From: an uncultured Candidatus Nemicrothrix sp.
GTDB lineage: Bacteria; Actinomycetota; Acidimicrobiia; Acidimicrobiales; MedAcidi-G1
Reading direction: 5' to 3'
NCBI GenBank assembly: GCA_964344855.1
Contig: CAYFOV010000009.1
Coordinates: 28,235-92,234, forward strand
Length of the DNA: 64,000 bases
In this document: positions 1 to 50,905 of the stretch, in pieces
Numbering within the stretch: position 1 is the first letter of the stretch
Layout: each line of letters opens with the position of its first letter
Translations under genes and position numbers: made by a program
The notes under the pieces: generated by a model
What the model was told of the DNA's origin: nothing
The model's input: the letters and a program-made list of their open reading frames with translations, nothing else
Databases searched by the model: none

Positions 1-1
1 G

Positions 2-4579: not shown

Positions 4580-4583
4580 GGCG

Positions 4584-5648
4584 GTGACGGGAGACCAGGG
4601 CAGGTACTCGTGGCGGATGGTCCAGCCGGGCCGGCCGCTGGAGCTCCACGGCTCCGCCGGCCGCCGCGCCGGCCCGGGCGAGGTGCTGGTCGAGGTGGCG
4701 GGCTGCGGGGTCTGCCACACCGACGTGGGCTTCTACGACGGCTCGGTCAGGACCCGCGCCGACCTCCCCCTGGTGCTGGGCCATGAGGTGAGCGGCACGG
4801 TCGTGGAGGCGGGAGAGGGTGCTGGCGAGTTGGTCGGGAGCGGTGTGCTGGTGGCCGCGGTCATCCCCTGCGGATGCTGCCAGATGTGCTCGGCGGGCAG
4901 GGGCAACGTGTGCGGCGACCAGCTGATGCCGGGCAACGACCTGGACGGTGGGTTCGCGACCCACCTCACGGTGCCGGCTACAGGCGTCTTCGCCTGCGGT
5001 GACCTGCCCGCGGGGTACGGCCTGGCCGACATGGCCGTGGTGGCCGACGCCCTCACCACCCCGCTCCAGGCCATCAGGCGGGCGGGGGTGGCCGAGGGCG
5101 ACACCGTGGTCGTCGTCGGCACGGGCGGCGTCGGCGGCTTCGCCGTCCAGGTGGCAGCGGCGTCCGGCGGAACCGTCGTGGCCCTCGACGTCGACGACGG
5201 GCGCCTGGCCGCCCTCGACGACCATGGGGCCGCCGCCTCCCTGAACGTTCGGGGAATGTCACCCCGCGGGGTCCGCGAGGCTGTGAGGGAGCTGGTCGCC
5301 TCCCTCGGAGCGTCGGAGGTCGGCTGGAAGGTCTTCGAGTGCTCGGGCACCGCATCCGGGCAGGAGACCGCCTTCGGCCTGGTCGGCACGGCGGCCACCC
5401 TGGCCGTGGTGGGCTTCACGAGGGACAAGGTGTCCATCAGGCTCTCCAACCTGATGGCCTTCGACGCCACGGCGTTCGGCAGCTGGGGCTGCCCGCCCGA
5501 GCGCTATCCGGAGGCCATCCACCTGGTCACGTCGGGACAGGTGGACCTGCTGCCCTTCATCCGCAGGGTGCCGATGGCCGACGTCATGTCGGTCCTGGCC
5601 CCCGGCGGCGGCCACGGCGACCCGCGGCGGCCGGTGCTGGTCCCGTGA
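4584..5648 (+). CDS. had: Zn-dependent alcohol dehydrogenase family; 6-hydroxycyclohex-1-ene-1-carbonyl-CoA dehydrogenase-like
   Basis: GCGVCHTDVGFYDGSVRT..LVLGHEVSG zinc-ADH signature and GTGGVGGFAVQ Rossmann motif. Sits between hcrB and oah. Start set at GTG 4584, 5 nt after the hcrB stop; ATG 4617 is an alternative. Confidence 0.65.
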   Translation: MTGDQGRYSWRMVQPGRPLELHGSAGRRAGPGEVLVEVAGCGVCHTDVGFYDGSVRTRADLPLVLGHEVSGTVVEAGEGAGELVGSGVLVAAVIPCGCCQMCSAGRGNVCGDQLMPGNDLDGGFATHLTVPATGVFACGDLPAGYGLADMAVVADALTTPLQAIRRAGVAEGDTVVVVGTGGVGGFAVQVAAASGGTVVALDVDDGRLAALDDHGAAASLNVRGMSPRGVREAVRELVASLGASEVGWKVFECSGTASGQETAFGLVGTAATLAVVGFTRDKVSIRLSNLMAFDATAFGSWGCPPERYPEAIHLVTSGQVDLLPFIRRVPMADVMSVLAPGGGHGDPRRPVLVP

Positions 5649-5769
5649 GTAGGTCCGCCGCGCCGCCAGGCGCCCCTACCCGGAGGTCCCGGTCAGGTAA
5701 CCCCGCTCCGGGGATCCAACCCCATGAATCCCAGCCCAGAGAGCCGAATCCACAGAAAGGCACGAAGCG

Positions 5770-6870
5770 ATGGAACAGGTGAGCCACGACCTCGACCCGG
5801 CAAGGGAGTTCACAGAGATCCTCTACGAGCACCGGCCGGTGTTCGACGCGGAGGGAACCGAGGTGGACGGCCTCCACGTCGTCTGGATCACCCTGGACAA
5901 CCCCCGCCAACTCAACTCGTACACGACGGAGTCGGTGAAGGACCTCATCCTGGCCTTCCGCCGGGCCTCCGTCGACCGGGCGGCGGTGGCCGTGGTGTTC
6001 ACCGGGGTGGGTGACCGGGCCTTCTGCACTGGGGGCAACACCGAGGAGTACTCGGAGTACTACGCCGGTCAGCCCGGTGAGTACCGCCAGTACATGCGGC
6101 TCTTCAACGACATGGTCTCGGCGATCCTGTCCTGCGACAAGCCCGTGATCAACCGGGTCAACGGTATGCGGATCGGCGGTGGCCAGGAGATCGGGATGGC
6201 CTGCGACTTCACCCTGGCTTCCGACCTGGCGCGCTTCGGACAGGCCGGCCCCAAGCACGGATCGGCTCCCGACGGAGGCTCCACCGACTTCCTGCACCTG
6301 TACGTCGGCTGGAGCGAGGCCGTTGCCAGCTGTGCCCTGTGCGAGCCGTGGAGCGCACACCAGGCGGCCCGCCTGGGCCTGGTCAACGAGATCTACCCGG
6401 TGCTCAGGGTGGACGGCCGGTTCGTTCCGAACCCGCTGGTCGTGACCGATCGCTACCTCGACGAGTGGGGCAGGATCATCCACGGCGAGGCCAAGACCGG
6501 TGAGGAGCTGGAGGCCGGCAAGGCGCTCCTGAAGTCAGGGACCGTCGACTTCGAGCTGCTCGACAGGGGAGTCGACGCGGTCGTAACCAAACTGCTCCAC
6601 ACGATGCCCGACTGCACACAGAAGACCATCGAGTCGCTCAGGAAGAAGAAGTTGGAGCACTGGGACCAGAACCGCGAGACCAACCGCGCCTGGCTGTCGC
6701 TGAACATGATGACCGAGGCCCGGGCCGGCTTCCAGGCCTTCCACCGGGGCGACCGGGAGGTGGGACGCGAGGTCGACTTCGTCGACCTCCGGCGGCGCCT
6801 TGCCGCGGGGGAGCGCTGGGGGGAGGACCTGGTGAGGGCGGTCTCGCCCCAGCACAGGCAGGACAAGTGA
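5770..6870 (+). CDS. oah: Long crotonase-family protein; 6-oxocyclohex-1-ene-1-carbonyl-CoA hydrolase-like (ring-cleaving Oah/BamA type)
   Basis: 366 aa crotonase fold (VVFTGVGDRAFCTGGN, INRVNGMRIGGGQEIGMACDF) with the long C-terminal extension typical of Oah. Flanked by had and dch. Confidence 0.7.
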   Translation: MEQVSHDLDPAREFTEILYEHRPVFDAEGTEVDGLHVVWITLDNPRQLNSYTTESVKDLILAFRRASVDRAAVAVVFTGVGDRAFCTGGNTEEYSEYYAGQPGEYRQYMRLFNDMVSAILSCDKPVINRVNGMRIGGGQEIGMACDFTLASDLARFGQAGPKHGSAPDGGSTDFLHLYVGWSEAVASCALCEPWSAHQAARLGLVNEIYPVLRVDGRFVPNPLVVTDRYLDEWGRIIHGEAKTGEELEAGKALLKSGTVDFELLDRGVDAVVTKLLHTMPDCTQKTIESLRKKKLEHWDQNRETNRAWLSLNMMTEARAGFQAFHRGDREVGREVDFVDLRRRLAAGERWGEDLVRAVSPQHRQDK

Positions 6871-7631
6871 GCGTGGGCCTCGTCCGCCACGAGGTCTCGC
6901 GGGGGGGTGCCGTCCACACGGTCACCCTCGACGCTCCGAGGGGGAACGTGGTCGACATCGCCATGTGCGGGCAGTTGCGGCCTGCGATCGCGGCTGCGGC
7001 GTCCTCGGAGGAGGCCAGGGTCCTGGTGCTCAGGGGGGCCGGGTCCGACTTCTGCTTCGGGGCCAGCGTCGCCGAGCACCTGCCGGAGGTGGCCCCACGG
7101 ATGCTGGAGGCCTTCGGCGGCGTCATCCGGGACCTCGTGGGCTTTCCCCTTCCGACTCTGGCCGCCGTGCAGGGCAGGTGCCTGGGGGGAGGCCTGGAGC
7201 TGGCGCTGGCGTGCGGGATCGTGGTCGCCGAGGAGGGGGCGGTGCTGGGGAGCCCCGAGATCCGGCTCGGGGTGCTGGCCCCCGCGGCTGCCGCCATGCT
7301 GCCGCGGAGGGCGGCCGAGGAGGTGCTCCTCACAGGGCGCGACCTCTCCGCGGCCGAGGCCGGGGCGCTCGGCATCGTCAGCCGGGTTGTCCCCGACGGT
7401 GGCCTGGACGCCGCCGTGGACGGGTACGTCGACGAGCACTTCGTACCCAGGTCGGCCAGCTCGCTGCGCCTGGCGACCGGCCTGGTGAGGAGGCTGAACG
7501 GGCGCAGCCTCGAGGAGAGGCTGGCCGAGGCCGAGCGCACCTACGTCGAGGACCTGCTCGCCACCCACGACGGCGTCGAGGGGATCCGGGCCTTCGTGGA
7601 GAAGCGGCCGCCGGAGTGGCGGAACCGCTGA
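6867..7631 (+). CDS. dch: Enoyl-CoA hydratase family; cyclohexa-1,5-diene-1-carbonyl-CoA hydratase-like
   Basis: 254 aa crotonase (LRGAGSDFCFGASV, GRCLGGGLELALAC, GIRAFVEKRPPEW). GTGA overlap with the oah stop. Confidence 0.65.
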   Translation: MSVGLVRHEVSRGGAVHTVTLDAPRGNVVDIAMCGQLRPAIAAAASSEEARVLVLRGAGSDFCFGASVAEHLPEVAPRMLEAFGGVIRDLVGFPLPTLAAVQGRCLGGGLELALACGIVVAEEGAVLGSPEIRLGVLAPAAAAMLPRRAAEEVLLTGRDLSAAEAGALGIVSRVVPDGGLDAAVDGYVDEHFVPRSASSLRLATGLVRRLNGRSLEERLAEAERTYVEDLLATHDGVEGIRAFVEKRPPEWRNR

Positions 7632-7658
7632 GCCGTTGCCGGCTCAGCCAGCCGGTGC

Positions 7659-7934
7659 TCAGGAACCCAGGCCCGACCCGCGGGTGAACAGGACCGTGCA
7701 CTCCGAGGTGGCCGAGACGGCGCAGGCGGTGCAGGCCCCACCGAACGTGGCGGGGTCCAGGTCGGCGACGGCGGTCTCGAACCCGAGCGACGAGTAGAGC
7801 TCCCGGAGCTCCTCCAGCCTCGACCTGTCGCCGACGGTGCGACGGACCCAGCCGTCGGCCTCGAGGTCGCCCCCTCCGCGCACGGCGATTCCGGCCGAGC
7901 AGTACAGGACCCCGGGGGCCGGGTCTGCGCCCAC
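7659..7934 (-). CDS. Hypothetical small Cys-containing protein (91 aa) immediately downstream of the reductase ATPase genes
   Basis: High GC3 ORF with a GTG start 5 nt after the upstream TAG stop. Four Cys (C12, CTAC, SEC). No canonical ferredoxin CxxCxxCxxxCP motif and no family recognised. Confidence 0.35.
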   Translation of the reverse strand: MGADPAPGVLYCSAGIAVRGGGDLEADGWVRRTVGDRSRLEELRELYSSLGFETAVADLDPATFGGACTACAVSATSECTVLFTRGSGLGS

Positions 7935-7938
7935 AGCC

Positions 7939-8763
7939 CTAGCCGACCGTGGCCGTGGCCGTCCCGCCGGCCCCGATCTTCTCCAGGCGCCGGCGCCCCA
8001 GGATCGCGCAGCCGAGGGCGTGGACGTGCTGGACCATCCCGGCGTCGGGGATGTTCACCTCCGAGTCCAGCATCTCGGCGACCAGCCTCCCCATGGTCTC
8101 GAACCGGAGGATCCCGCCGATGAGGGTGAACTCGGGCTCCGCCCGGACCCGCTTCATGAGCTGGACCGAACGGCCCGTCAGCGACTCGATGGCACCCTGC
8201 ATGATGTCGGCCGGGGCGGTTCCGAGGGAGAGGTGGTTGATCACCTCGGACTCGGCGAACACGGCGCACACCCCGGAGATGGGCACCGAGCCCCTGGAGG
8301 TCGTCATGAGTGGGCCGATCTCCCCGGTGGTGTACCCCATGTAGCGGGCGGTCTTCTCGAGGAACGCCCCCGTGCCGGCCGCGCACTTGTCGTTCAGCCT
8401 GAACGAGAGCACCCTGGCGGCGTCGTCCACCCGGCTGGCCTTCATGGTCTGGCCGCCCACGTCCAGGATGGTGCGTGTGCCCGGGAAGAGGTGCCTGGCA
8501 CCGTGGGCGCAGGCGGTCAGGTCCGTCACGTGCAGGTCCTTGAAGTCGACCTGGTGGCGGCCGGCACCCGTGGCTATCACGTACGAGACGTCACCCTCGT
8601 CGAGGGAGGCGTCGTCCAGGGCCATCTCGTAGACGGTCCGGGCCACCTCCCTGAGCCGGAAGCCCGTCGGGGCCATCGCCCTGCCCAGGACCGTCCCGTC
8701 CTCGGCCTGGATGACCGCCTTGGTGTAGGTGGATCCGACGTCCACCCCGGCGGTGCTGATCAC
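7939..8763 (-). CDS. bzdQ: BadF/BadG/BcrA/BcrD-type ATPase subunit of benzoyl-CoA reductase (bzd-type; Q assigned by gene order only)
   Basis: [16 protein letters not shown]-binding N-terminus. Cluster-bridging Cys motifs [11 protein letters not shown] and [11 protein letters not shown]. About 274 aa. The GTG start overlaps the upstream stop (GTGA at 8760-8763). Confidence 0.7.
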
Positions 8764-9587
8764 GACACCACCCCGACCCCGCCGGCGGCCGGCGCCCTCC
8801 CGGCCATCACGTTGTCGAGGGCGAACAGGGCGGCACCCAGGGCCCCCATGTAGTGGCAGTCGTCGCTGATGTTGAGCGGCCTGCCGAGCCTGTCGCCGAG
8901 GGCCCTGACCATGCCCACGTTCCGGGAGACGCCCCCCGTGAAGGTGACCTCGTCCTCGATCCCCACGCGGCGCATGAGGGCCACGGAACGTGAGGCGATG
9001 GAGGTGTGCACCCCCCAGAGGATGTCCTCGATCCGCTTGCCCTTGCCGATCCACGCCAGCACCTCGGACTCGGCGAAGACCGTGCACGTGGTGCTGATCT
9101 TGACGGGCTTGGTGCTCTCCAGGGAGACCGGTCCGAGCCGGTCGAGGGGGATGTCCAGGGCGGAGGCCGCAGCGCCGAGGAAGCGGCCGGTCCCGGCAGC
9201 GCACTTGTCGTTCATGCAGAAGTCCACGATCTCGCCGTCGGCGCTGACGGAGATGGCCTTGGTGTCCTGGCCCCCCATGTCCACGACGGTCCGGGTGCCG
9301 GGGAAGAGGTGGACGGCGCCGCGGCCGTGGCAGCTGATCTCGGTCACCTGGCTGTTGCCGAACGTGACCCGGAACCGCCCATACCCGGTCCCCACGACGT
9401 ACTCCACCTCCTCCTCGTCGATGCCGCCCTGCCTGAGGGCCTCGACGTAGGAGGCCTCGGCCGCCTGGATCACGTTCGCACCGGTGTCCATGAGCGAACG
9501 GCCGACGATCCGGCGCGCCTCGTCGACGACCACGGCCTTGGTCTGGGTCGAGCCGACGTCTACGCCTGCTGCGTACGCCATCGCCAC
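8760..9587 (-). CDS. bzdP: BadF/BadG/BcrA/BcrD-type ATPase subunit of benzoyl-CoA reductase (bzd-type; P assigned by gene order only)
   Basis: [25 protein letters not shown] and [10 protein letters not shown] motifs. 275 aa. Lies 5 nt downstream of the bzdO-like gene. Confidence 0.7.
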
Positions 9588-9591
9588 CTCC

Positions 9592-10896
9592 TCACCCGGG
9601 AGCCCCGGCGAGGGCCTGCTGGCGGCGCGAGGCCAGGCCCTCGAAGAAGGCGTCGATCCGGTTCTTCATCTGCGCCTCGGAGACGACCCGCCGGTCCATC
9701 ATGTCGGACTCGATGAACAGGCTGGGGATGCCGACCTTCTCCGTGAGGTGCCGCCTGCCGTCGGCCAGGCCGGTCGACACCGTGCGGCAGCTCTTGATCG
9801 GGTGGTAGATGACGCCGTCGGCGTCGAACTCGGCGATCATCTCCTCGAGGACGTCGCCCTGGTGGAACATGGAGTCCATGGCGTCGCGGACCGAGACCAG
9901 CATCCCCTCGGCCAGGCTCGCCAGCGGGTCTCCCAGGTCGTACTCGAAGCCCCGGTTGGTTCCGCCCGAGGCGAACCAGAGGTAGGTGGAGTTGACGAAG
10001 GTGGCGTCCCACTCGCTGAACAGCTCGTTGAACCGGCGGAAGATCGGGTAGCAGGGGACACCCACGAAGAGCAGCCGGTACACCTCCTCTGTGGTCTGGC
10101 CGATCCCGTTTCGGGCCTTGTACTCCATCTCCTCGACCAGCCGCTCGAAGTAGGCGGACCCCTCGGCGGTCCCCCTGAAGCCATTGGCGACGCCGAGGAA
10201 GATCGTCCCGTCGGTCACGGCGTTGAATGGCGAGGGCCTGGCGCAGTTCAACTCCAGCACCTGGTTCCAGCAGCGGCTCATGGTGTTGGCGTGCCCCAGC
10301 ACCTCGCGGAACCGGTCCACGTCGAAGGGGATGCCGGTGACCTCCTCGCAGAGCCCTATGAGCTCGCGCAGCTGCACCTCCACGTAGCGGCGGTCGGCCT
10401 CGAAGTCATCGTCCCCCCTCCAGGTCTGCCCTCCGCCCTGGCGCGTACCCGGCACGTCGATGGTGAAGACGGGCACCCCGTGCATTCGCTCCCAGATCTC
10501 GGCCCACTTGATGTAGGTGTTGCAGGCGTTCGTCAGCACCACGACTCCCGGTGGCGGGATCCGGCCCATCGGGTGCTGGCCGCCCCTGAGCTGGACGGCC
10601 ACGTCCGCTTTCACGTAGCCGCAGATGTCGGGGGAGTAGCCGTAGTCCTCAGCCTCCTCCAGGTACTCGTGGGCGACCCGGCGGACGGCCGTCTGCAGCG
10701 AGTTGATCTCGGGGAACACGACCGGGAGGTCGAAGGTCTTGAGGATCTCGTTGGTGCTGCCCATCACGAACACGTAGGCAGCGGGCCCGCCCTCGGCGGC
10801 GACCCGGTCCAGGTCCGTGAACCAGTCGCGGAACATGGCGGCGCCCTCGTGGTTGCCCCTGCCGACCAGGCTTCCGTCTCGGGCTTCAGTTGGCAT
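9592..10896 (-). CDS. bzdO: Benzoyl-CoA reductase / 2-hydroxyacyl-CoA dehydratase family catalytic subunit (BcrB/BzdO-like)
   Basis: 434 aa of the BcrB/HgdA-type family ([24 protein letters not shown].., [20 protein letters not shown]). AGGAGG lies 6 nt upstream of ATG 10896. Confidence 0.7.
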
Positions 10897-10993
10897 GGCA
10901 GCCTCCTGCCTGCTCGCGCCCGCCGGCTGCCCCGAGGCACTGCTGCGCCCTGGTAGCCGAACGGGAGGACGAACACGGCTCCCGCATGTAGGC

Positions 10994-11098
10994 CCCTGTG
11001 CGATGAGTCCCCGTGCGATGAGTCCCCGTTCGATGAGTCCCCGTGCGAACAGTCCTGGTTCGATGACTTCCCATGCGATGGGCCCTCATGCGAACAGC
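10994..11098. repeat. 15-bp tandem repeat, about 7 units (plus-strand consensus CCCCGTGCGATGAGT), in the bzdN-bzdO spacer
   Basis: Direct reading shows units at 10994, 11009, 11024, 11039, 11054, 11069 and 11084. The three central units are near-identical and the outer ones are degenerate. The last unit contains the bzdN stop codon. Confidence 0.85.
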
Positions 11099-12282
11099 AG
11101 GTGCTCGACGAAGGTCTCGACCTGGAGCTCCAGCTGGCTGAACGAGGTCATGTTCTCCTCGAACTCGCTCACGAAGTAGGCCACGCCCTCCTCGTCGAGG
11201 GCGTGGGTGTATGCCACCTGCTCCTCCAGGCCGGGTTCGCACATCTTGGCGGCGGCCAGGATTGCTGCGTCCGCCCTGGCCTCTCTGATCCGGTCCAGGA
11301 GCATCTTCTCCTTGGGCTTGCGCAGGTCGTGTTGCACCGGGCTGTAGGACGAGCGCTCGATGTAGGCCTCGGCCAGGTTGGTGAGGGGGTCGCCGGCCGT
11401 GGGGACGTCCTCGGTCAGCCACCTCAGGCCGATCAGGAGGTCGTCGTCCACGACGTAGGAGGCCCGTCCGAGCATGCGTACCAGGTCGAACGGCGGCTGC
11501 TCGCAGAACCCGCCCTCGAACACGATCCGGATGCGGTCCTCGGGCCTCCGCCGGCGCCGGCGGACCTGGGGCAGCAGCGTGGCAAGGAGCTGGTTGTGCT
11601 CCTCCCGGGGGATCATCCCGGCCAGGGCCACCAGCGCGAAGGCGTCCTCGGCGTCGATCAGCCATGGGGTCTCGCGCTTGATGTCGTAGAGCTCCCGGAG
11701 GAGCCGCCTGTTCTCGTTGAACACGCGGATCGAGGAGCGCAGGTCGTCGTCGCCGACCTCCGTACCGGCCACCTCCTCGACGACCCTGCGCATCCGGTCG
11801 TACTCGTGTCGCAGGTACTCGAGGCTGCCCGCCGAGTTGGGGTTCTGTGGCAGGTAGAGGATCTGGCACGGGTAGTCGAAGTTGCGGCCCCAGATGGCGG
11901 CCAGGTTCCGGGCCGCGTCACAGATCGGGTGGGAGACGAACAGGTCCAGGCGGACCTGTTCGCTGAGCGCCAACTCCAGGGAGGTCTTGAGGATCGAGCA
12001 GAGGTAGGAGCCGAAGTGCGAGTCGGCCACGTTGGGCTCGACGGGCGCTCCCCTCACCTTGAACGGGAGCATCCCGGCTGCGTGGACGATCTCCTCCGGG
12101 AAGGCCACCTGGAAGTGGCCGGCGACCTTCCCGCCGGCGTCCCGCCAGCGCGCCACGGTCTCGAACTCGGGGGACTCGACCATTTCCCGGCACTCGAGCA
12201 GGGCGTCGTCGAGGGGCTTGTCGCGCCATTCGGGGAAGACCAGGGTGGTGGGGGCCGCTGCGGGGGCGGTCGCGGTGCTCAT
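11086..12282 (-). CDS. bzdN: Benzoyl-CoA reductase / 2-hydroxyacyl-CoA dehydratase family subunit (BcrC/BadD/BzdN-like)
   Basis: 398 aa (GHFQVAFPEEIVHAAGMLPFKV, ICDAARN, AKMCEPG). ATG 12282 overlaps the TetR stop (ATGA). First gene of the four-gene reductase operon. Confidence 0.7.
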   Translation of the reverse strand: MSTATAPAAAPTTLVFPEWRDKPLDDALLECREMVESPEFETVARWRDAGGKVAGHFQVAFPEEIVHAAGMLPFKVRGAPVEPNVADSHFGSYLCSILKTSLELALSEQVRLDLFVSHPICDAARNLAAIWGRNFDYPCQILYLPQNPNSAGSLEYLRHEYDRMRRVVEEVAGTEVGDDDLRSSIRVFNENRRLLRELYDIKRETPWLIDAEDAFALVALAGMIPREEHNQLLATLLPQVRRRRRRPEDRIRIVFEGGFCEQPPFDLVRMLGRASYVVDDDLLIGLRWLTEDVPTAGDPLTNLAEAYIERSSYSPVQHDLRKPKEKMLLDRIREARADAAILAAAKMCEPGLEEQVAYTHALDEEGVAYFVSEFEENMTSFSQLELQVETFVEHLLFA

Positions 12283-12923
12283 CGGGAGGCCACACCGTCG
12301 GAGCCGGCCCCGTCGAAGAAGAGGTCCATGACCTGTTCCAGTTGGGCGTCGGTCCCCTGGAGGGTGTCGGCGGCATAGCGCCCTATCACCACCTCGACCA
12401 GCGCCACGAACGACCACGAGAGGATCCGGGGGTCCCGGTCCACGACCTCTCCTGCGGCTATCCCGTCACGGAGGATCTCCTCGATGAGCTCGGGCAGCGC
12501 ATGCTGGTATGCGCTGATGAGGTTCTCGCGTTCCTCTCCCCTGAAGGTGTTGATGTCCCGGCGCACCAGGTGGGTCAGCTCGCGCTCCTCGAAGGGAAGT
12601 TCCAGGTAGTCCCTCGTCAGTTGGGCCAGGCGCTCCCTGGCCGTTCCCTCCATGGCCACGGCCCGGCTGAAGAGCTCGTGCTTGTTCTGGAAGTCGGCGA
12701 GCATCATGGAGGTGTAGAGGTCCTCCTTGCTGGCGAAGTGGTGGTAGAGGCCCCCCTTGGTGACCTCGGCCGCCCGGGCGATCATGTCGGTGGTGACGTC
12801 GGCGTAGCTGCGGGTGACGAAGAGGCCCCTGGCAGCCTCCAGGATCCTGGCCGATGTGGCCTCGGACCTGCTCGGAGGATCGGCTGGCATGTTGGCCCTC
12901 GTGTCTCTTGTTGGTGACGTCAT
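12279..12923 (-). CDS. TetR/AcrR family transcriptional regulator
   Basis: N-terminal HTH (ILEAARGLFVTRSYADVTTDMIARAAEVTKGGLYHHFASKEDLY). Its stop overlaps the bzdN start. ATG 12890 is an alternative start. Confidence 0.8.
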   Translation of the reverse strand: MTSPTRDTRANMPADPPSRSEATSARILEAARGLFVTRSYADVTTDMIARAAEVTKGGLYHHFASKEDLYTSMMLADFQNKHELFSRAVAMEGTARERLAQLTRDYLELPFEERELTHLVRRDINTFRGEERENLISAYQHALPELIEEILRDGIAAGEVVDRDPRILSWSFVALVEVVIGRYAADTLQGTDAQLEQVMDLFFDGAGSDGVASR

Positions 12924-14291: not shown

Positions 14292-15251
14292 TCAGCCGGC
14301 CGTAGCCATGCAGGCGTCGTGCAGGTCGGCGCTGTCCATGTCCTGGGCCAGCCGGTCGACCACCGCCACCGCCTCCTCCCCGGTCAGGTCCTCTCGCTCT
14401 GCGAGGGCGCGGACGGCCTCCCTGAGCTCCCGCGGTGCGAGGCCCGGGACGAAGCTGAGGTACACCCAGGCGAAGGCGGGACCCACCCCCGGGACGCTTC
14501 CCTTCTTCTCCCTCACGGCCACCTCCCACATGAAGGTGTCGGGCCAGCCCTCGTCTGGCATTCCCCGGTAGTCCTCCCGGACCTTGAGGTAGGCACCCTC
14601 CTCGATCCGTTCCCTGTTCTGGGCCACTGAGCACCTGATGCTGCACGTGAGGAACCGGTCGGGCCTCTTCACCCACGATCCGCATTGACAGCAGCGGCCG
14701 GCCACGTCGTTCCCGGGTAGGCCGGCCGCCTCTCGGAGCCAGCCGACGGGCTCCTCGCACGCCATCCTGTCGCGCGTCGCCTCGTCCAGGGCGGCGTTGC
14801 GCAGGGCGGCCTGGCGTACCTCGACCCACGGATCGTCGGCCAGGCGGTCCAAGAGGTCGGGCGGGCAGGTCTCGTGGAGGGCCAGGATGCGGCGGGCGGT
14901 CGGGTTGGGATGGCCTGTCCACCACGGAAGCTCCCTCCGGTCGGTCGTCCACAGCCGCTCCTCGAGGTCGAGAAGGCCGCCGAAGGGCCTGAACGGGTCG
15001 CGCCTCTGGCGTTCCGGGCGTCCGCGGGTGGCCATCGAGTTGGACCACATGTCACGGACGATCGAGCGGGCCACCTCAACGGTGCGCAGGTACTCCTCGA
15101 CCTCGGGGACCGGGTGCGGGCGGGGCGGCCCCGGTGGGCCGTCGGGGCCGTGGAATGGGAGGGGGTACGAGGTGGTCTCGTCTTCCTCCACGAGGTCGTC
15201 GTCGCCGGCCGCGTCTGGCCCGTGGAAGGGGTCGGTGTTGGTGGTTGCCAT
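14292..15251 (-). CDS. Hypothetical protein with LRV/HEAT-like repeats and a Cys-rich zinc-ribbon-like segment
   Basis: 319 aa high-GC3 ORF. Has HPNPTARRILALHETCPPDLLDRLADDPWVEVRQAALRN repeats and CCQCGSW..CSIRC. No confident family assignment. Confidence 0.45.
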   Translation of the reverse strand: MATTNTDPFHGPDAAGDDDLVEEDETTSYPLPFHGPDGPPGPPRPHPVPEVEEYLRTVEVARSIVRDMWSNSMATRGRPERQRRDPFRPFGGLLDLEERLWTTDRRELPWWTGHPNPTARRILALHETCPPDLLDRLADDPWVEVRQAALRNAALDEATRDRMACEEPVGWLREAAGLPGNDVAGRCCQCGSWVKRPDRFLTCSIRCSVAQNRERIEEGAYLKVREDYRGMPDEGWPDTFMWEVAVREKKGSVPGVGPAFAWVYLSFVPGLAPRELREAVRALAEREDLTGEEAVAVVDRLAQDMDSADLHDACMATAG

Positions 15252-15376
15252 GGTGTGCTCCTCATCGAACCTGGCGGAACCACCGTGCCCTTCTCGGGTC
15301 GGTTGGCGGATCGTCGCAGGGCCAGGTCCCTCGGATCCTCTTGATGAGACACCCCGAACGTACCACCGGGCTGTGA

Positions 15377-27118: not shown

Positions 27119-28291
27119 ATGGGCGACGAACAGGTACGGGAGGCCGTGGCCGGCCTGGAGGGGTACGCCTTCGACGAGATGCCCTGGACGGTCCCGCCTC
27201 CCCTCTCCCAGAGCAGGGTGGCCGTGGTCACGACCGCAGGGCTGAGGCCCGACGGGGGCGCCGACTGGAACCCCGGCGACCAGTCCTTCACCCTCCTGCC
27301 CGCCGACCGGCGCGACCTGGTCCTGGCCCACTTCAGCCCCAACTTCGACAGGACCGGATGGCTCGTGGACCCCAACGTGGTCTTCCCACTCGACCGCCTG
27401 GACGAGCTGGCCGCCGAGGGGGTGATCGGGTCGGTGGCCGACGTGCACGTCTCGTTCATGGGGGCCCAGATCGACCACACCCTCGAGACCATCCGGTTGG
27501 ACACGGGTCCGGCCGCCGCAAGGGCGCTGCTCGACGACGGGGTCGACGTGGCCCTGCTTACCCCCGTCTGACCGCTGTGCACGCGTACCGTGGGTACGCT
27601 CGCATCGGTCCTGGAGGAGGCCGGGATCGCCACCGTGGCGCTGTCCCTGATCCGCCAGCAGGTGGAGACGACGAGGCCGCCGCGGGCACTCCACTGCCAT
27701 TTCCCGCTGGGCCGTCCGCTGGGGAGGCCCGCCGACCCGGCCTTCCAGACGAGGGTGCTGCGGAGCGCCCTGGACCTGCTCGGCGAACAGGGCGGGCCGG
27801 TGCTGGTCGACTTCGACGAGGTGGTGGAGGACGACTCGGCCGCCCCGCTGGCCTGTGCCATCCCTCCTGCCGATGCGGGCGACGTCCACCCCGCCGAGGC
27901 AGAGGCCGGCGGCCTCCTGCCGGCCTGGCGGCGCAGCCTCGAGGAGCACGGCCGTACAACGGTTGGAAAGGTGGTGCCGGCCGAGGAGGTTCCTGCGGTG
28001 GTCGGGCTCTTCGCCCGGATCGCCGACGGGGAGGACTGGAAGGAGGTGGGCCTCCCCGGAGACCCCACCAAGGTGGCCGCGGACGTGCGCAACTTCTACG
28101 AGGAGGCAGCCCTGTCCCTATCCGACGGGGTCCCCGGAGCGCGCCAGGCCGAGTCCTGGTTCGTGGACCACACCGCCGCCGGTGACGTCGTGCAGAGGGC
28201 CCGCCTCGAGATGAAGGACCAGGGGGCGGGCTTCTACTTCTGGTACTACCTGCTGCCCCTCAGCCAGCACCACGACCCGCGGGAAGGCTGA
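27119..28291 (+). CDS. Glycine/sarcosine/betaine/D-proline reductase selenoprotein B (GrdB/PrdB) family protein, with in-frame TGA 27569-27571 read as selenocysteine (U-x-x-C)
   Basis: ORFs 27119..27571 and 27590..28291 are in the same frame and only this TGA separates them. The junction reads LLTPV-U-PLCTRTVGTLASVLEEAGIATV. GRDB-like blocks lie upstream (VAVVTTAGL, DPNVVFPLDRLDELAAEG). A hairpin starts 11 nt downstream of the TGA. Confidence 0.7.
27583..27599 (+). promoter_or_regulatory. SECIS-like hairpin GCGUACC-GUG-GGUACGC downstream of UGA 27569
   Basis: Perfect 7-bp stem starting 11 nt after the UGA, with a GU-containing apical loop. A further GUGC/GCAU lower stem is possible across an internal loop. 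Confidence 0.5.
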
Positions 28292-39611: not shown

Positions 39612-39666
39612 GGCGAGTGTGGCACGCCGCTGGCGGCGGTGGCGGGCCGGGTGGGAGGCTGGGTCC

Positions 39667-41040
39667 ATGCGCAGGGTCGCGGTGCTGGTCGTCCCGCTCC
39701 TCCTGTGGGGCTGTGCGGGAGGGGATGCTCCAACTGCCGGCGGGGCACCGACCACCGCGCCGCCCGCCACGTCGGGCACACCGTCCGGGGATGCTCCGAC
39801 TGTGGGCGGGGCACCGACCACCGCGCCGCCCGCCACGGCGGGCACGCCGTCCGGGGATGCTCCGACCGCGGGCGAGGCCCCGGCCAGCGCCCAGACGGCC
39901 GCGGGCACGCCGTTCGACGCCGGAGCGGAGGCCCCTGCCACCACGGCAGCAACCGCGGTGGCCCCGGCTGCAGCCGCGGAGCCGCCGCCCACCGCCCCCA
40001 CGGTGCCGGCCGCCACGACGGAATCCCAGCCGGCCGCCACGACGGTCCCGGTCCCGGTTCCGACAACCGACCCCACGACCACCACGGCGCCACTGGTGAC
40101 GGGGGCCGCTGCCGCCTTCTCGCCGGACCACCTGATGGTGGGCCCCGGCTCCTTCTTCGAGTCGGCCGACGACCCCCGCCTCGTGGCGGCCCCGGAGGCG
40201 ACCTGGCTGGAACCCGACGACGTGGTGCTGGGGGTCCTCCAGGGCGGTGAGGCGGTGGCGTTCCCCGTCGACCAGATGGCCTACCACCACATCGCCAACA
40301 CCAGCGTCGCCGGCGAGCCCTGGCTGGTCACCTACTGAGTGGTCTGCTCCAGCGGGGTCGGTTTCGACCCCGTCATCGACGGCACCAGGTACACCTTCGA
40401 CGTGGCCGGCCTCTACAACGGCCTGTTCGTGATGAGCGACCGCCAGACCGGCTCTGTGTGGACCCACTACGACGGCACGATCCTGACCGGGCCGCTGGCA
40501 GGGACGGGGGCGGCCCTCACGGTCAGGCCGCTCCACCACCGGCGCTGGTCAGGCTGGCTGGCCGACCACCCGGAGACCAGCGTGCTGGCCCGGGAGGAGC
40601 GCTACGAGGACCGCTACTGGGAGACGACTCCGGGCCAGCCGGGCCTGGGCCGTGAGTTCCTGGACACGCTCGTCTCGCTCGACACCCGCCTGCCCGAGAA
40701 CGAGCTGGTGCTCGGCGTCGACACCGGCACGGGCTCCAGGGCCTACCGCCTTGCGGGTGCCGACGGGCCCACCGTGGTGGCCGACGTACTGGGCGGCCTC
40801 CCGGTCATAGCCGTTCTGGACCCCGACTCTGTGTTCGGGATCGCCTTCGAGGCGACCGTCGACGGCGAGGTGCGGTCCTTCCAGCCGACCGAGGGCGGCC
40901 TCGTGGACGACCTGGGCGGCAGCTGGGGCCTGGACGGATCCGGAACCGGCGGCCGCAGCCTAAGGTTCGTGACCAGCTTCGTGACCGAGTGGTACGGCTG
41001 GGCCGCCTACCACCCCGACACCGGGATCTGGCCTGGCTGA
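39667..41040 (+). CDS. Lipoprotein with a Pro/Thr/Ala-rich linker and a DUF3179 domain; in-frame TGA 40336-40338 read as selenocysteine (U-V-V-C in place of the family CxxC)
   Basis: ORFs 39607..40338 and 40339..41040 are contiguous in one frame. The junction reads GEPWLVTY-U-VVCSSGVGFDP. DUF3179-like blocks lie on both sides of the TGA. Signal peptide and lipobox MRRVAVLVVPLLLWGC. A hairpin with a GUUU loop starts 15 nt downstream. Confidence 0.7.
39721..39880 (+). repeat. 66-bp in-frame tandem repeat (about 2.4 copies) encoding GDAPT.GGAPTTAPPAT.GTPS in the lipoprotein linker
   Basis: Units at 39721-39786 and 39787-39852 differ at only a few positions. A partial third copy follows. Confidence 0.85.
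40353..40372 (+). promoter_or_regulatory. SECIS-like hairpin C-GGGGUCG-GUUU-CGACCCC-G downstream of UGA 40336
   Basis: Perfect 8-bp GC-rich stem with a GUUU apical loop. The loop lies 23 nt after the UGA. Confidence 0.5.
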
Positions 41041-46310: not shown

Positions 46311-46988
46311 ATGGCCACCATGGCCTACACCACCCCGGAGTACCACCCGGCCTTCGAGGAGTACTGCGAGACCATCTACGAGTTGGCCGAGGACGACTTC
46401 GAGGTGATACAGGCGCGTATCGCCGAGCGCCTCGAGATCAGCCGGCCGGCAGTGTCGGAGATGATCAGGCGGATGGAGAAGGAGGGCCTGGTGTCCACGG
46501 CGGGATCGGCCATAGCCCTGACGGCTGACGGCCAGGAGTTGGCCATCTCCGTGGTCCGCAGGCACCGGCTGGCCGAGCGCTTCCTGACCGACGTGCTGGG
46601 CCTCTCGTGGACCGACGCCCACCACGAGGCCGGCAAGTGGGAGCACGTCATCTCACCGCTGGTGGAGGGCGCCCTGAACCGGATGCTGGGTGAACCGACC
46701 ACCTGTCCGCACGGAAACCCCATCCCGGGCAGCTCATACGAGGCCCCCGACGCCTGCCACCTGGTGGAGATCGACGTGGGCGATGAGTTCACGGTGAGCC
46801 GCATCACCGAGGAACTGGAGTTCACCGAGGGGATGCTGGACTTCCTCGAGGGGTCGGCCCTGGTCCCGGGCAACCGGGGCACGGTCACCGCGGCATCACC
46901 CGACGGCACGGTCACCGTCGAGATCGACGGAAACCGGTTCGGCGTGGGTTCCTACGCCGCCGAGCGCATCCTCGTCACCAACGGCTGA
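46311..46988 (+). CDS. DtxR/IdeR/MntR family metal-dependent transcriptional regulator with a C-terminal FeoA/SH3-like domain
   Basis: YCETIYELAE.., ARIAERLEISRPAVSEMIRRMEKEGLV HTH, RRHRLAERFL, EAGKWEHVIS and CPHGNPIP. ATG 46320 is an alternative start. Confidence 0.85.
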   Translation: MATMAYTTPEYHPAFEEYCETIYELAEDDFEVIQARIAERLEISRPAVSEMIRRMEKEGLVSTAGSAIALTADGQELAISVVRRHRLAERFLTDVLGLSWTDAHHEAGKWEHVISPLVEGALNRMLGEPTTCPHGNPIPGSSYEAPDACHLVEIDVGDEFTVSRITEELEFTEGMLDFLEGSALVPGNRGTVTAASPDGTVTVEIDGNRFGVGSYAAERILVTNG

Positions 46989-47036
46989 GACGGGGCGGCT
47001 GCCACAGCCCGCCGACCCGGCTGGCCGGGTGGTCGG

Positions 47037-48689
47037 TCATGCCAGGTAGGTGGCGCGGCGCACGACCAGCAGCCAGGTCATCACGGCGCTGATCCCGACA
47101 AGGGCCAGGGCCAGCAGTGCCGCCTCCGGGATGTAGGAGGCCTCGTAGGTGTCCCAGATCTCGACGGCCAGTGTCCTGAACCCGATGGGCGAGACGAGCA
47201 GGGTGGCCGGCAGCTCCTTCATTGTGGAGAGCATCACGAGGCCCCCGCCGGCAGCCAGGCTGGGGGCCATGAGGGGCAACTCGACGGTCGTGAGGCGCCT
47301 GAACCGTCCCGCCCCCAGCAAGCGGGCGGCGTCCTCCATGCGCCTCGGCACGGTCGACACGGCCACCTGCGCCGTCCGGACGGCCTGCGCGCCGAAGTGG
47401 ACCACGTACGCGAACACCAGCACCGGGAGGGTCCCCACGAGGAACCCGAACGGCGAGGCGTGCAGGGTCCAGAAGATGAGCGAGAGGGCCACGACCAGGC
47501 CCGGGATGGCGAAGCCGGCCACGACGACGCCGTTGATGGCGGCACCCAGCCTGGTGCGGTGGCGGGCCAGAAGGTAGGCCACCGGCAGAACGGCCGCCAC
47601 CGCCAGCAGGGCGGTCACGACGCTGATCCACACCGTGTTCCAGGCCGGACCCGCCAGGTCGACGGGTTCCAGCCGCAGGCCGCCGCCCCTTTCCCCCAGC
47701 CAGCCGGAGAGGCCCCAGTCTGCCAGCGACACGGCCGGTGAGACGAGGGCCAGGCCCAGCACAGCGGCGCAGGCGGCGACGGACGGCGCCGTCCACCTGC
47801 CCAGGGAGACCCGCAGGGCCGGCCGGTCGCCCACAACCTGGTTCCGGGCGCCCCTCCTGGCAACCGTGCGCTCGGCGGACACGACCAGCAGCGCCAGGAC
47901 CAGCAGCACCAGGGCCATGGCGAACGACCGCTCCTGGTCGAACAGCCTCGTCCGGAAGATCGTCTGGGTGAGGGTCTCGAAGCGCATGAGGTGCACGGCG
48001 CCGAAGTCGCTGACGGTGTAGAGGAAGACCAGCAGCGAGCCGGCGGCTATGGCCGACCCGGCCTGGGGGAGCACGATCCGCCTGAACACCTGCACCGGGC
48101 GGTCGCCCAGCAGGCGGGCGTTCTCCTCCAGCGACGTCGGCAGCGTCGAGAGCCGGGCCGCCACCGGGAGGTAGACGTAGGGGTAGGTGAACAGCGTCAG
48201 CACCAGCCAGGCGCCGAAGAGCCCGTGCAGCCGCAGGTCCAGGTCCAGGCCGACCAGGCCGGCCAGGTCGTGCACGATGCCGCCGGGGGTGAGGCCCGAC
48301 TGGAGTGCGCTGGCCCCCACGAAGCTCGGGTAGACGAGGGGGAGGGGGGTGGCTATCCGCCAGAAGCCGGCTGCCGGCAGGTCCGTGCGCGTCGTCAGCC
48401 ATGCCAGGACCGTGCCTACGACCGCGGCAGCCCCCGAGACCAGCACCGCCAACTGGACGGTCCGCCACAGGGGCTCGAGGGTGCGGGCCGAGGCAAGGAG
48501 TCCCACCTGGTCGGTGCCGGCGGCCAGGACCCGCCAGACGACGTAGCCGCCGGGGATGGCGAACAGCGTCGCCACCACCACAGCGGCCACGACGAGCGCC
48601 CGCGGGGGGCGCCCGGGACCCGCCCGGTCCCGAGCGCCCCCGTCCGCGGACTGTGGAGGCCCCCCGGCAGCGACCGCCGGCCTCACCAC
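47037..48689 (-). CDS. Iron(III)/thiamine-type ABC transporter permease (fused double permease, FbpB-like)
   Basis: 550 aa with about 12 hydrophobic segments and two permease EAA-like loops (LEENARLLG; MEDAARLLGAG). Confidence 0.75.
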   Translation of the reverse strand: MVRPAVAAGGPPQSADGGARDRAGPGRPPRALVVAAVVVATLFAIPGGYVVWRVLAAGTDQVGLLASARTLEPLWRTVQLAVLVSGAAAVVGTVLAWLTTRTDLPAAGFWRIATPLPLVYPSFVGASALQSGLTPGGIVHDLAGLVGLDLDLRLHGLFGAWLVLTLFTYPYVYLPVAARLSTLPTSLEENARLLGDRPVQVFRRIVLPQAGSAIAAGSLLVFLYTVSDFGAVHLMRFETLTQTIFRTRLFDQERSFAMALVLLVLALLVVSAERTVARRGARNQVVGDRPALRVSLGRWTAPSVAACAAVLGLALVSPAVSLADWGLSGWLGERGGGLRLEPVDLAGPAWNTVWISVVTALLAVAAVLPVAYLLARHRTRLGAAINGVVVAGFAIPGLVVALSLIFWTLHASPFGFLVGTLPVLVFAYVVHFGAQAVRTAQVAVSTVPRRMEDAARLLGAGRFRRLTTVELPLMAPSLAAGGGLVMLSTMKELPATLLVSPIGFRTLAVEIWDTYEASYIPEAALLALALVGISAVMTWLLVVRRATYLA

Positions 48690-48699
48690 TTGCCGTCAG

Positions 48700-49761
48700 T
48701 CACTGGTCCAGGATTCCGCTGGCCTCGATGATCTCGATGGTCCTCGTGAACTCGGCCGCCACGTCGTCGATCTCCACAGCTCCGACCGTGTCGGCCGGCG
48801 CCGGGGGCAGGGAACCGGCGGGATCCACCCCCGGGACCAGCGGGTACTCGAACACGGAGTCGGTCAGGTAGCGCTGCTGGGAGTTGCTCAGCAGGTGGGC
48901 CAGCAGGCGGTTGGCCAGGTCCTTGTCGTCGCTCTGCTCCAGGATGGCTGCCGTGGCGATGATCATCAGGCCTCCGTCGTCGCCCTCGTCGAAGCCGTGG
49001 TTGGCCGACCGCTGGGCGTCGCCGTTGGCGGCCACCTCCTGGTGGTTGTAGTAGTGGTTGACCAGGCCGAAGTGGACCTCGCCGCGCCCGACGGCCTCCA
49101 CGATCGCCCGGTTCTTGGGGTAGAAGCGGGCCCCGTTGGCGACCATCCCGTCAAGCCACGCCACGGCAGCGTCGTCGCCGTTGCGCAGGCGGAACACCGT
49201 GAACCAGTCCTGGAACGAGGAGTTGCTGCCGGGGACCGCCACCTTGTCCCTGTACTCGGGCCCGGTCAGGTCGAACACCGAACCGGGCAGGTCGGCTTCG
49301 GCCACCTCGTCGATGTTGTACACGAGGACGCGTGCACGGCCGGCGAAACCGACCCAGGACCCGGTCGGGGAGCGGTCGCCGGGGGTGACCCTGTCCAGCA
49401 CCTCAGCGTCGATGGTGGCGAGCATCCCGAGGTCGTCCAGGTAGCCGGCCGGCCCGGGGCTCCTCGACAGGTAGACGTCGGCCGGGGTCTTGTCCCCCTC
49501 GGCCGAGATGGCCAGGGCCAGGTCGTTGGAGGACCCGTACCTGACCTCGAGGTCCACTCCCGTGACGGCCTCGAACTCCTCGAACATCGGGCCCACCAGC
49601 TTCTCGCTGCGTCCCGAGTAGACGGTGAGGGTGGGCTCCTCATCGCTGCCGCACGCCGCGGCGGTGGCCGCAACGGTTACGGCCAGGAGCGCGGCCAGGA
49701 CGGTCCGGAGGGACCGGCCTGCGTTCCGGGGTGCGGGTGGCGTGGTGGGTAGGTCGGGCAT
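48700..49761 (-). CDS. ABC transporter periplasmic-type solute-binding lipoprotein (Fe3+ FbpA/AfuA-like)
   Basis: Signal peptide plus lipobox (LLAVTVAATAAACGSD). Family-1 SBP of about 350 aa. Lies between the ATPase and permease genes. Confidence 0.7.
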   Translation of the reverse strand: MPDLPTTPPAPRNAGRSLRTVLAALLAVTVAATAAACGSDEEPTLTVYSGRSEKLVGPMFEEFEAVTGVDLEVRYGSSNDLALAISAEGDKTPADVYLSRSPGPAGYLDDLGMLATIDAEVLDRVTPGDRSPTGSWVGFAGRARVLVYNIDEVAEADLPGSVFDLTGPEYRDKVAVPGSNSSFQDWFTVFRLRNGDDAAVAWLDGMVANGARFYPKNRAIVEAVGRGEVHFGLVNHYYNHQEVAANGDAQRSANHGFDEGDDGGLMIIATAAILEQSDDKDLANRLLAHLLSNSQQRYLTDSVFEYPLVPGVDPAGSLPPAPADTVGAVEIDDVAAEFTRTIEIIEASGILDQ

Positions 49762-49794
49762 TGGGCTGGTCCTTACCGGTCGGTTCCATCAGTG

Positions 49795-49825
49795 TAAGGG
49801 AAACCTAACAATCGATATAAGGGAA
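49795..49825. promoter_or_regulatory. AT-rich 64-nt spacer inside the ABC operon carrying the direct repeat TAAGGGAA-N15-TAAGGGAA and an AACCTAA half-site
   Basis: Read directly at 49795-49802 and 49818-49825. It is the most AT-rich intergenic stretch in this part of the window. It is only a 12/19 match to the IdeR/DtxR box consensus as I remember it. Confidence 0.3.
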
Positions 49826-50905
49826 TCAAACACCAACGGCGAAGACGCCGGGTCCGACATATGTCACAGCGACCCTGTCGCCGCGGGCGAACGAGACGTC
49901 GGCGGCGGTGCGGGCCCTGACCGGTGTGCCGTCACCCAGTCGGATGAGGACAACGGCGTCGTGGCCGTAGTACTCGACCAGCTCGACCACGCCGTCGTCG
50001 CCGGGCCCCACCGCCAGGTCCTCGGGGCGCATGAGCAACTCGACCCGACCCTCCGTTCCGGCCTCGATTCCAGGCGCCAGCGGCACCTCGCCCAGCGGCG
50101 TCGAGCAGGTTCCCCCGGCCCCGTTGCCGCACGGGCCGTCGACCGGGAACAGGTTCGCCTCGCCCACGAACGTGGCGATCCAGCGGTCGGCGGGCCGCCT
50201 GTACACCTCGTCGGGGCTGCCGACCTGTGCCAGCAGCCCGTCGTGGAGTACTGCGACCCTGTCACCCAGCACGAAGGCCTCGTCCTGGTCATGTGTCACG
50301 AAGACCGTTGTCACGCCCAACTCGACCAGGAGGTGGTGGATCTCGGTTCGGACCTGGGAGCGGAGGGAGGTGTCCAGGTTGGAGAAGGGTTCGTCCAGCA
50401 GCAGCACGCCGGGCCGCGGCGCCAGGGCCCTCGCCAGGGCCACACGCTGCTGCTGTCCCCCCGAGAGCGTCCCCGGCATGCGGCCGGCGACGTCCGCCAA
50501 CCCGACCATGGCGAGCGACTCCGCCACCCGCCCAGAACCGGCCTCCCGCCTCGGTAGCCCGTAGCCGACGTTCCTGGCCACGTCCAGGTGGGGGAAGAGG
50601 GCGGAGTCCTGGAAGACCATGCCGATCCTGCGCCGTTCAGGCGGAACGAATGTGCCCGGTCCGCTGACGACGCGGTCGCCGATGGAGACCCTGCCGCCCT
50701 CGGGCCTCTCCAGGCCGGCTATGGCCCTCAACAGGGTCGTCTTGCCGCAGCCGCTGGGGCCGAGCAGGGCGATGATCTCGCCGGGTTCGACCGCCAGCGA
50801 GATGTCGGACAGCACGGTCCGGCCCTCGTAGCCGACCGAAACGCCCTCTATGGCGAGGCCCACGGGCGTCGGGTCCCGCGGCACCTCCCGTCCTATGTTC
50901 ACCAT
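49826..50905 (-). CDS. ABC transporter ATP-binding protein (FbpC/PotA-like)
   Basis: GPSGCGKTT (Walker A), LSGGQQQRVALARAL (signature), LLLDEPFS (Walker B) and a C-terminal TOBE-like domain. Confidence 0.85.
   Translation of the reverse strand: MVNIGREVPRDPTPVGLAIEGVSVGYEGRTVLSDISLAVEPGEIIALLGPSGCGKTTLLRAIAGLERPEGGRVSIGDRVVSGPGTFVPPERRRIGMVFQDSALFPHLDVARNVGYGLPRREAGSGRVAESLAMVGLADVAGRMPGTLSGGQQQRVALARALAPRPGVLLLDEPFSNLDTSLRSQVRTEIHHLLVELGVTTVFVTHDQDEAFVLGDRVAVLHDGLLAQVGSPDEVYRRPADRWIATFVGEANLFPVDGPCGNGAGGTCSTPLGEVPLAPGIEAGTEGRVELLMRPEDLAVGPGDDGVVELVEYYGHDAVVLIRLGDGTPVRARTAADVSFARGDRVAVTYVGPGVFAVGV

Follow-up and report, generated by a model that had tools for sequence, protein, structure and literature searches.

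Gene structure and reading frame

The DNA analysed here, referred to as the window, is a stretch of 64,000 nucleotides from contig CAYFOV010000009.1 (assembly GCA_964344855.1) of an uncultured Candidatus Nemicrothrix sp. It contains a gene of the DUF3179 family (PF11376) that is interrupted by an in-frame TGA, and a sequence-only reading of the window had proposed that this gene encodes a secreted selenoprotein. The TGA is the only break between two open reading frames (ORFs) that lie in the same frame on the plus strand, 39607/39667..40338 and 40339..41040. The junction of the ORFs reads ..VAGEPWLVTY-TGA-VVCSSGVGFDP.., the sequence 3' of the TGA being VVCSSGVGFDPVIDG, and the junction peptide of the read-through product would be ..EPWLVTY-U-VVCSSGVGFDPVIDGTR. 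Public gene callers cut the gene into products of 223 and 233 residues.

The features of the locus are listed in Table 1. The stretch from 39667 to 41040 is one real gene and not two. The G+C content at third codon positions (GC3) in the frame of the gene is 0.96 upstream and 0.93 downstream of the TGA, compared to 0.46–0.74 in the other frames. The ATG at 39667 is favoured as start codon, as it is chosen by the gene callers on public assemblies and is preceded at 8 nt by the sequence GGGAGG. TGA is an ordinary stop codon in this genome region, as had been stated before, since it terminates 43 of the 52 GC3-supported ORFs of the window, and an alternative genetic code is rejected on these grounds. 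On comparative sequence evidence the in-frame UGA almost certainly encodes selenocysteine (Sec).

Table 1. Coordinates of the DUF3179 gene, its parts and the second gene with an in-frame TGA in the window
Feature	Position	Strand	Remarks
Shine-Dalgarno-like GGGAGG	39653..39658	+	8 nt 5' of ATG 39667; visible in the sequence
Full DUF3179 gene (predicted selenoprotein)	39667..41040	+	457 codons; UGA (predicted Sec) is codon 224; true stop TGA 41038-41040
Predicted signal peptide with lipobox-like LLWG-C (Cys16)	39667..39714	+	from sequence
Pro/Thr/Ala-rich low-complexity linker	39715..40164	+	holds a 66-nt tandem repeat
DUF3179 (PF11376) domain	40165..41022	+	internally duplicated two-module fold
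His207-His208, family H-[E/H] pair	40285..40290	+	15 residues before UxxC
UGA, predicted selenocysteine U224	40336..40338	+	first Cys column of the family CxxC; TGC/TGT in Cys forms
Cys227, second residue of U-V-V-C	40345..40347	+	C in 34/34 aligned Sec forms
Predicted bacterial SECIS hairpin	40352..40373	+	stem 40352-40360 with 40365-40373; apical loop GUUU 40361-40364
Second TGA gene, PrdB/GrdB-like	27119-28291	+	TGA 27569-27571; junction ..LLTPV-U-PLCTRT..

The DUF3179 domain and the Sec/Cys column

A single PF11376 alignment crosses the TGA (E 3.9e-45; 155 bits, cutoff 27), and runs from residue 167 to 452 of the protein and from position 7 to 292 of the 292 profile positions. The window protein thus scores above the gathering threshold over the whole domain, in one stretch through the TGA, as the sequence-only reading had expected of a profile search. 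In an alignment of 94 family sequences, with the window protein as row 1 and its U entered as C, the consensus around the TGA is WHEIVND..GG.PVA.TYCPLC..G.AF. The hallmark VTYCPLC..G..F given in the sequence-only reading is therefore correct, and the TGA indeed occupies the position of the first cysteine in the conserved CxxC. This first Cys is present in 92 of the 94 sequences, and the second in 90. Also conserved are a His at alignment position 61 (87/94) and a Glu or His at position 62 (94/94). The window protein has the motif YHHIAN, followed after 11 residues by TY-U-VVC, in agreement with the family patterns H-[E/H]-[IV]-x-N and T-Y-C-x-x-C.

Full-length homologues with a cysteine at the TGA column (Cys forms; P0050, P0060 and P0070) read VTYCVVCSS. 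The nearest database proteins are mostly fragments of about 207–245 residues that start right after the Sec column. Such fragments are the signature of gene callers halting at a common TGA. A few family members have CxxT and retain the first Cys only, which agrees with the published UxxC/T motif.

A homologue scan in which each species was represented by one genome gave 48 loci, and the codon at the Sec column is TGA in 39 of these (32 + 7), giving 40 Sec-form loci including the window. The 39 Sec-form genomes belong to Acidimicrobiia/Microthrixaceae, to Anaerolineales and Dehalococcoidia (Chloroflexota), to Acidobacteriota and to Proteobacteria, so that the Sec forms cover at least four phyla; TGC or TGT occupies the column in two distant loci only. 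In addition, five independent assemblies of the organism, derived from four sequencing runs, show no difference over the 300 nt that surround the TGA. As the TGA is identical in the assemblies and kept across phyla, a sequencing error or a private pseudogene is excluded; the TGC, TGT or frameshift that resequencing might have revealed was not seen.

The SECIS hairpin

A hairpin with a GUUU loop lies directly downstream of the UGA. The earlier description of this element as a perfect 8-bp GC stem starting 15 nt after the TGA is right as to its existence and its loop, but slightly loose in other details: the stem starts 13-14 nt after the TGA and has 9 bp, consisting of 8 Watson-Crick pairs, one of which is U-A, and an extra closing G-U pair. 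The distance from the UGA to the loop is 22 nt. The published model of the bacterial selenocysteine insertion sequence (bSECIS) has a loop of 3-9 nt, an upper stem of 4-16 bp, a G in the first two loop positions (usually G[G/U]), a UGA-to-loop distance of 16-37 nt and a minimum free energy of -7.5 kcal/mol or lower (PMC13188914). The window hairpin satisfies this model, with its GUUU loop, 9 bp, 22 nt and about -17 kcal/mol.

Because a fold z-score is uninformative in DNA with 71% GC, comparative tests were used. Firstly, covariation was analysed in 34 Sec-form genes, in which 87.6% of the cells are paired, compared to 31-58% with a slid partner. Pair 22-33 is GC in 14, GU in 10 and AU in 9 sequences, and pair 24-31 is CG in 24 and UA in 9; double compensatory changes amount to 9 in each of these pairs. 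The covariation score was reached by none of 500 shuffles. Some compensations join a synonymous change to an amino-acid change, as in GUC/GAC to GUU/AAC (Asp to Asn) and GGG/CCC to GGA/UCC (Pro to Ser).

Secondly, the same peptide was re-encoded synonymously, following the codon usage of the gene concerned. The hairpin of the window has -17.9 kcal/mol against a mean of -9.4 kcal/mol for the recoded sequences (z -3.4). The Sec forms, 40 in number, have a mean z of -2.1, with 23 of them in the lowest 5%, whereas the 6 Cys forms have a mean z of -0.5 and none of them is in the lowest 5% (Mann-Whitney p = 1e-4). Judged by these two tests, the predicted hairpin is a covarying SECIS under selection, and the SECIS check that had been proposed has a positive outcome.

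The hairpin also leaves its mark on the protein. Position +8 after Sec is Gly or Ser in 33 of 34 Sec forms, whereby an invariant G is placed in the hairpin loop, and mostly Ala or Val in Cys forms. Position +11 is Pro in 33 of 34 Sec forms and mostly Arg in Cys forms. These differences indicate that the predicted SECIS constrains the peptide sequence of the Sec forms. No SECIS family of Rfam matched, either in the window at the gathering threshold or around the TGA at E up to 10, as was to be expected from the sparse coverage of bacterial SECIS elements in Rfam.

Probable Sec-decoding in the genome

A second gene with an in-frame TGA is found elsewhere in the window and is PrdB/GrdB-like. The Pfam GRDB match of its product extends to the TGA, and an alignment with NCBIfam TIGR04483 spans the TGA over residues 25-222 with 109.8 bits. 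As this is below the equivalog cutoff of 300, the predicted product is a relative and not a PrdB ortholog. A Cys is present at the TGA column in 22 of 29 full-length motif-matching relatives, and 80 database fragments start just after this column. The UGA is followed after 18 nt by a 7-bp hairpin with a loop of GUG. The public records divide this gene, too, into two.

A genomic link between a Sec-form DUF3179 gene and the decoding machinery is seen in a gammaproteobacterial metagenome-assembled genome (contig DATCIQ010000267.1, here L038), in which the gene lies within 6 kb of tRNA-SeC(UCA), SelB and SelA. The same region (1-7744) also encodes a flavoprotein resembling thioredoxin reductase (TrxR) and a UGSC-family protein with an in-frame TGA (..GVGL-U-STCSP..). 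Moreover, a 2026 preprint describes universal Sec machinery in Actinomarina, another lineage of the Acidimicrobiia. Given the second gene with a Sec/Cys pair in the window, the sel island of L038 and the use of Sec in Acidimicrobiia, the genome of the window very likely has the Sec-decoding trait.

Export signals and linker

The predicted N-terminus of the window protein, MRRVAVLVVPLLLWGC, aligns with ..VVVLSVGC of a homologue (L023) whose protein is 78% identical, and which has LSVGC at the position of LLWG-C. Of 40 Sec-form homologues, about 30 carry a lipobox of canonical type, such as LVAC, LAGC or TAAC, and AxA-type signal peptides are found in the proteobacterial and acidobacterial clade of Sec forms. 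Export of the DUF3179 protein is therefore a well-supported prediction. Lipidation of the window protein at Cys16 is probable but uncertain, because a Trp at position -2 is atypical. The signal sequence is followed by the Pro/Thr/Ala-rich linker, which contains a tandem repeat at 39721-39890 (66-nt unit, 2.6 copies, 89% matches) encoding GDAPTxGGAPTTAPPATxGTPS. With this N-terminus present and with a lipobox or signal peptide in most homologues, the extracytoplasmic location behind a Pro/Thr/Ala linker that the sequence-only reading had envisaged is supported.

Fold, partners and putative function

A sequence profile search of DUF3179 gave no relatives in the PDB. Of two Cys-form homologues of the window protein, P0070 and P0231, confident AlphaFold models were made, with predicted local distance difference test (pLDDT) scores of 83.5 (domain above 90) and 94.4. 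DUF3179 consists of two tandem copies of a module of some 135 residues: in P0070 the domain spans residues 105-405, and the N and C modules share 31% identity (E 2e-15). The motif consisting of H-[E/H], 15 residues and CxxC is confined to the N module. Foldseek found no significant PDB fold relative for either model (none at E of 0.001 or below). The domain cannot be classed with the thioredoxin fold, as it has no thioredoxin Pfam match, its models are beta-rich and duplicated, and no PDB structure with a thioredoxin fold was matched.

There is a genetic link to thioredoxin-like proteins. In P0149 and P0222, DUF3179 is fused to thioredoxin domains of the TlpA/AhpC type with WCPPC or CPIC motifs. 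In L038, a gene for a secreted WCAPC redoxin begins 7 nt past the stop codon of the DUF3179 gene, with the TrxR-like gene nearby. On account of these thioredoxin-like fusions and neighbours and of the CxxT variants, we favour a role of the first CxxC position as a catalytic redox selenol or thiol that would be recycled by thioredoxin-like partners. Other fusions exist as well: P0110 and P0140 consist of DUF3179, without a signal peptide, and class I S-adenosylmethionine (SAM) methyltransferase domains.

We propose the following course of events. The hairpin would act as a SECIS that recruits SelB with Sec-tRNA(Sec), so that the UGA is read as selenocysteine during translation. The product would be a precursor of 457 residues, exported via the Sec translocon and probably anchored to lipid at Cys16, and the Pro/Thr/Ala tether would keep the DUF3179 domain with its U-V-V-C outside the cytoplasm. 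There, Sec224 may be the attacking nucleophile, cycling via a selenenylsulfide with Cys227, and the reduced state may be restored by extracytoplasmic thioredoxins of the TlpA/ResA type. To this explanation as a whole, i.e. a Sec-decoded gene for an exported DUF3179 protein with a redox centre at Sec224, we assign a probability of roughly 85%.

Several observations weigh against this explanation or parts of it. No selA, selB, selD or tRNA-Sec gene was found in the 64 kb of the window, which was searched for sel genes with Pfam profiles, or in the 10 kb past its end. The fold z-score of the 71-nt region at the hairpin is unremarkable for its 71% GC (-1.0). The lipobox, L-W-G-C, deviates from the pattern [LVI][ASTVI][GAS]C. 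A redoxin neighbour of DUF3179 occurs in only 1 of 42 loci, and no conserved neighbours are shared among these 42 loci or in three Cys-form loci on long contigs. A few DUF3179 members lack both cysteines but retain the other conserved residues. Finally, the near-universal His-[Glu/His] pair and the weak Rieske-like match of the models would suit a metal site equally.

Such a metal site is the alternative that survives best, although we consider it unlikely. The U/C-x-x-C and His-[Glu/His] residues would then bind a mononuclear Fe, Cu or Zn or a Rieske-like cluster; the UGA would still encode Sec, but as a ligand. The PDB fold matches with a high probability are all Rieske [2Fe-2S] domains: 5bok, 2qpz and 3gce for the first model (probability ~1, template modelling score on the target 0.53-0.56) and 8hn2_A for the second (probability 0.94, root-mean-square deviation 3.1 A). 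The spacing of H-[E/H], 15 residues and CxxC also resembles that of Rieske CxH, 15-17 residues and CxxH. These matches are weak, however (E 0.02-0.2, 77-116 aligned columns), and the top-ranked matches of the second model are noise. Pfam gives no Rieske match at E up to 10, the ligand motifs CxH and CxxH are absent from DUF3179, and the CxxT variants would drop one metal ligand. Thioredoxin partners also serve in the assembly of metal sites, as TlpA does with Sco1 and CoxB, and the thioredoxin link is compatible with a metal site as well. There is also a precedent in the 2007 screen that is cited for DUF3179, which according to review tables also reported Sec in metal-binding CxxC motifs (PMC9312934; PMC13188914). 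The data would in addition accommodate a more specific and slightly less probable proposal, in which DUF3179 is an extracytoplasmic metalloprotein module derived from the Rieske fold, with Sec as direct metal ligand in the Sec forms. If true, this would be a new class of selenium-ligated metal site outside the formate dehydrogenases and [NiFeSe] hydrogenases.

Far less likely is recoding of the UGA through the same hairpin to Cys or another residue, either by a variant tRNA or by mis-insertion of Cys under selenium scarcity. The inserted amino acid is not readable from sequence data, and for other systems there are reports of ambiguity between Sec and Cys at UGA-SECIS sites. Against such recoding speak the ordinary role of TGA as a stop codon in the window, the canonical tRNA-SeC(UCA), SelA and SelB adjoining the Sec-form homologue of L038, and the fact that Cys could simply be encoded by TGC, as it is in the Cys-form relatives.

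The least credible possibility, and one that we reject, is that the TGA is a true stop, the gene being a pseudogene, wrongly assembled, or split into a 223-residue lipoprotein and a 233-residue piece starting at GTG 40339: all public gene calls do treat the TGA as a stop and this GTG is formally usable as a start, but the TGA is reproduced in the 5 assemblies and kept in 40 loci of different phyla, its two flanks being under coding constraint, the next codon in most homologues is ATC, ATA, ATT, AGC or ACG and hence not a start, the second piece would lack a signal peptide, begin in the middle of a beta-module and split the CxxC, and the selected hairpin follows the column in TGA forms only.

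Other features of the window

Three further observations concern other parts of the window. A SAM riboswitch (RF00162, 54.7 bits) is located at 15259-15350 on the minus strand, where it precedes an ORF in 14292-15250 for which Pfam gives no match. In the region 46311-50905, which follows the DUF3179 gene at a distance of about 5 kb, a gene for an iron-dependent repressor of the DtxR/IdeR type adjoins those for an ATP-binding cassette (ABC) transporter of the Fe(III) type (permease, binding protein and ATPase); a link of this cluster to DUF3179 is not established. Finally, 8760-12465 on the minus strand encodes an activator ATPase of the BcrAD/BadFG type and two homologues of the D-component of 2-hydroxyglutaryl-CoA dehydratase (HGD-D). 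These are types of oxygen-sensitive radical enzymes, which is of note beside the many oxidoreductases of aerobic type.

Previous reports and significance

In reviews of 2022 and 2026, DUF3179 (pfam11376) has been tabulated as a prokaryotic selenoprotein family with the motif UxxC/T (PMC9312934; PMC13188914). A 2022 review credits the DUF3179 selenoproteins to Zhang and Gladyshev 2007 (PMC9312934; PMC1976440), who gave provisional names to the new families (PMC1976440). Sec-containing DUF3179 proteins are thus already in the literature, and Sec at the position of the first Cys is not new. The expectation of the sequence-only reading that the window gene would give a first functional hint for this domain does not hold, since the inference from the Sec/Cys pair was already available. 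Mentions of the family were found in only three papers. The window gene is a new, well-supported example of a DUF3179 selenoprotein as well as a correction of the annotation. What is added to the published tables, namely the breadth of the Sec forms, export, quantitative evidence for the SECIS, the fold and the thioredoxin link, may be incremental.

Public databases list the window gene, like dozens of its relatives, as a pair of truncated products annotated as DUF3179 domain-containing or hypothetical proteins, and reading the TGA as Sec repairs these entries. Recognition of Sec would mark an Acidimicrobiia-like lineage as a user of this amino acid. The Sec/Cys pair points to the first CxxC residue as the site at which the function of this widespread domain is centred. 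The predicted export, the peptide-constraining SECIS, the duplicated fold, and the thioredoxin fusions and operon partner narrow the experiments that could lead to its function.

Comparison with known systems

Rieske [2Fe-2S] domains resemble one beta-module of DUF3179 in structure, weakly but repeatedly, and have a similar spacing of the candidate ligand segments. DUF3179 lacks their CxH and CxxH motifs and has no sequence similarity to them, and with fold scores that are not significant it cannot be counted among these domains. A closer functional parallel may be found in extracytoplasmic UxxC/CxxC oxidoreductases, such as Sec-containing DsbA-like and thioredoxin-like proteins and the clients of TlpA/ResA. 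Like these, DUF3179 proteins are predicted to be exported, have Sec in the place of the N-terminal Cys of a CxxC, and are genetically tied to thioredoxin-like reductants, i.e. through the fusions and the L038 operon. They differ in having a fold that is not thioredoxin-like, and their redox activity is putative.

The PrdB/GrdB selenoprotein B family resembles the DUF3179 gene in its Sec/Cys pair in U-x-x-C and its downstream hairpin (at 18 nt), but it is an unrelated protein family and cytoplasmic. With the SECIS of the Escherichia coli fdhF type, the window element has in common a hairpin located right after the UGA within the coding sequence, a loop starting with G-U, a spacing within 16-37 nt and a stable upper stem. 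There is no sequence similarity between the two; in the window, the conserved SSG[VI]GF[DN]P codons make up the stem. The best correspondence is with the published Sec-containing DUF3179 proteins, which have the same Pfam family, the same U-x-x-C position, one Sec per protein, a downstream hairpin and Cys homologues. The published family was first reported from the metagenome of deltaproteobacterial worm symbionts, whereas the window member comes from a high-GC, Acidimicrobiia-like genome.

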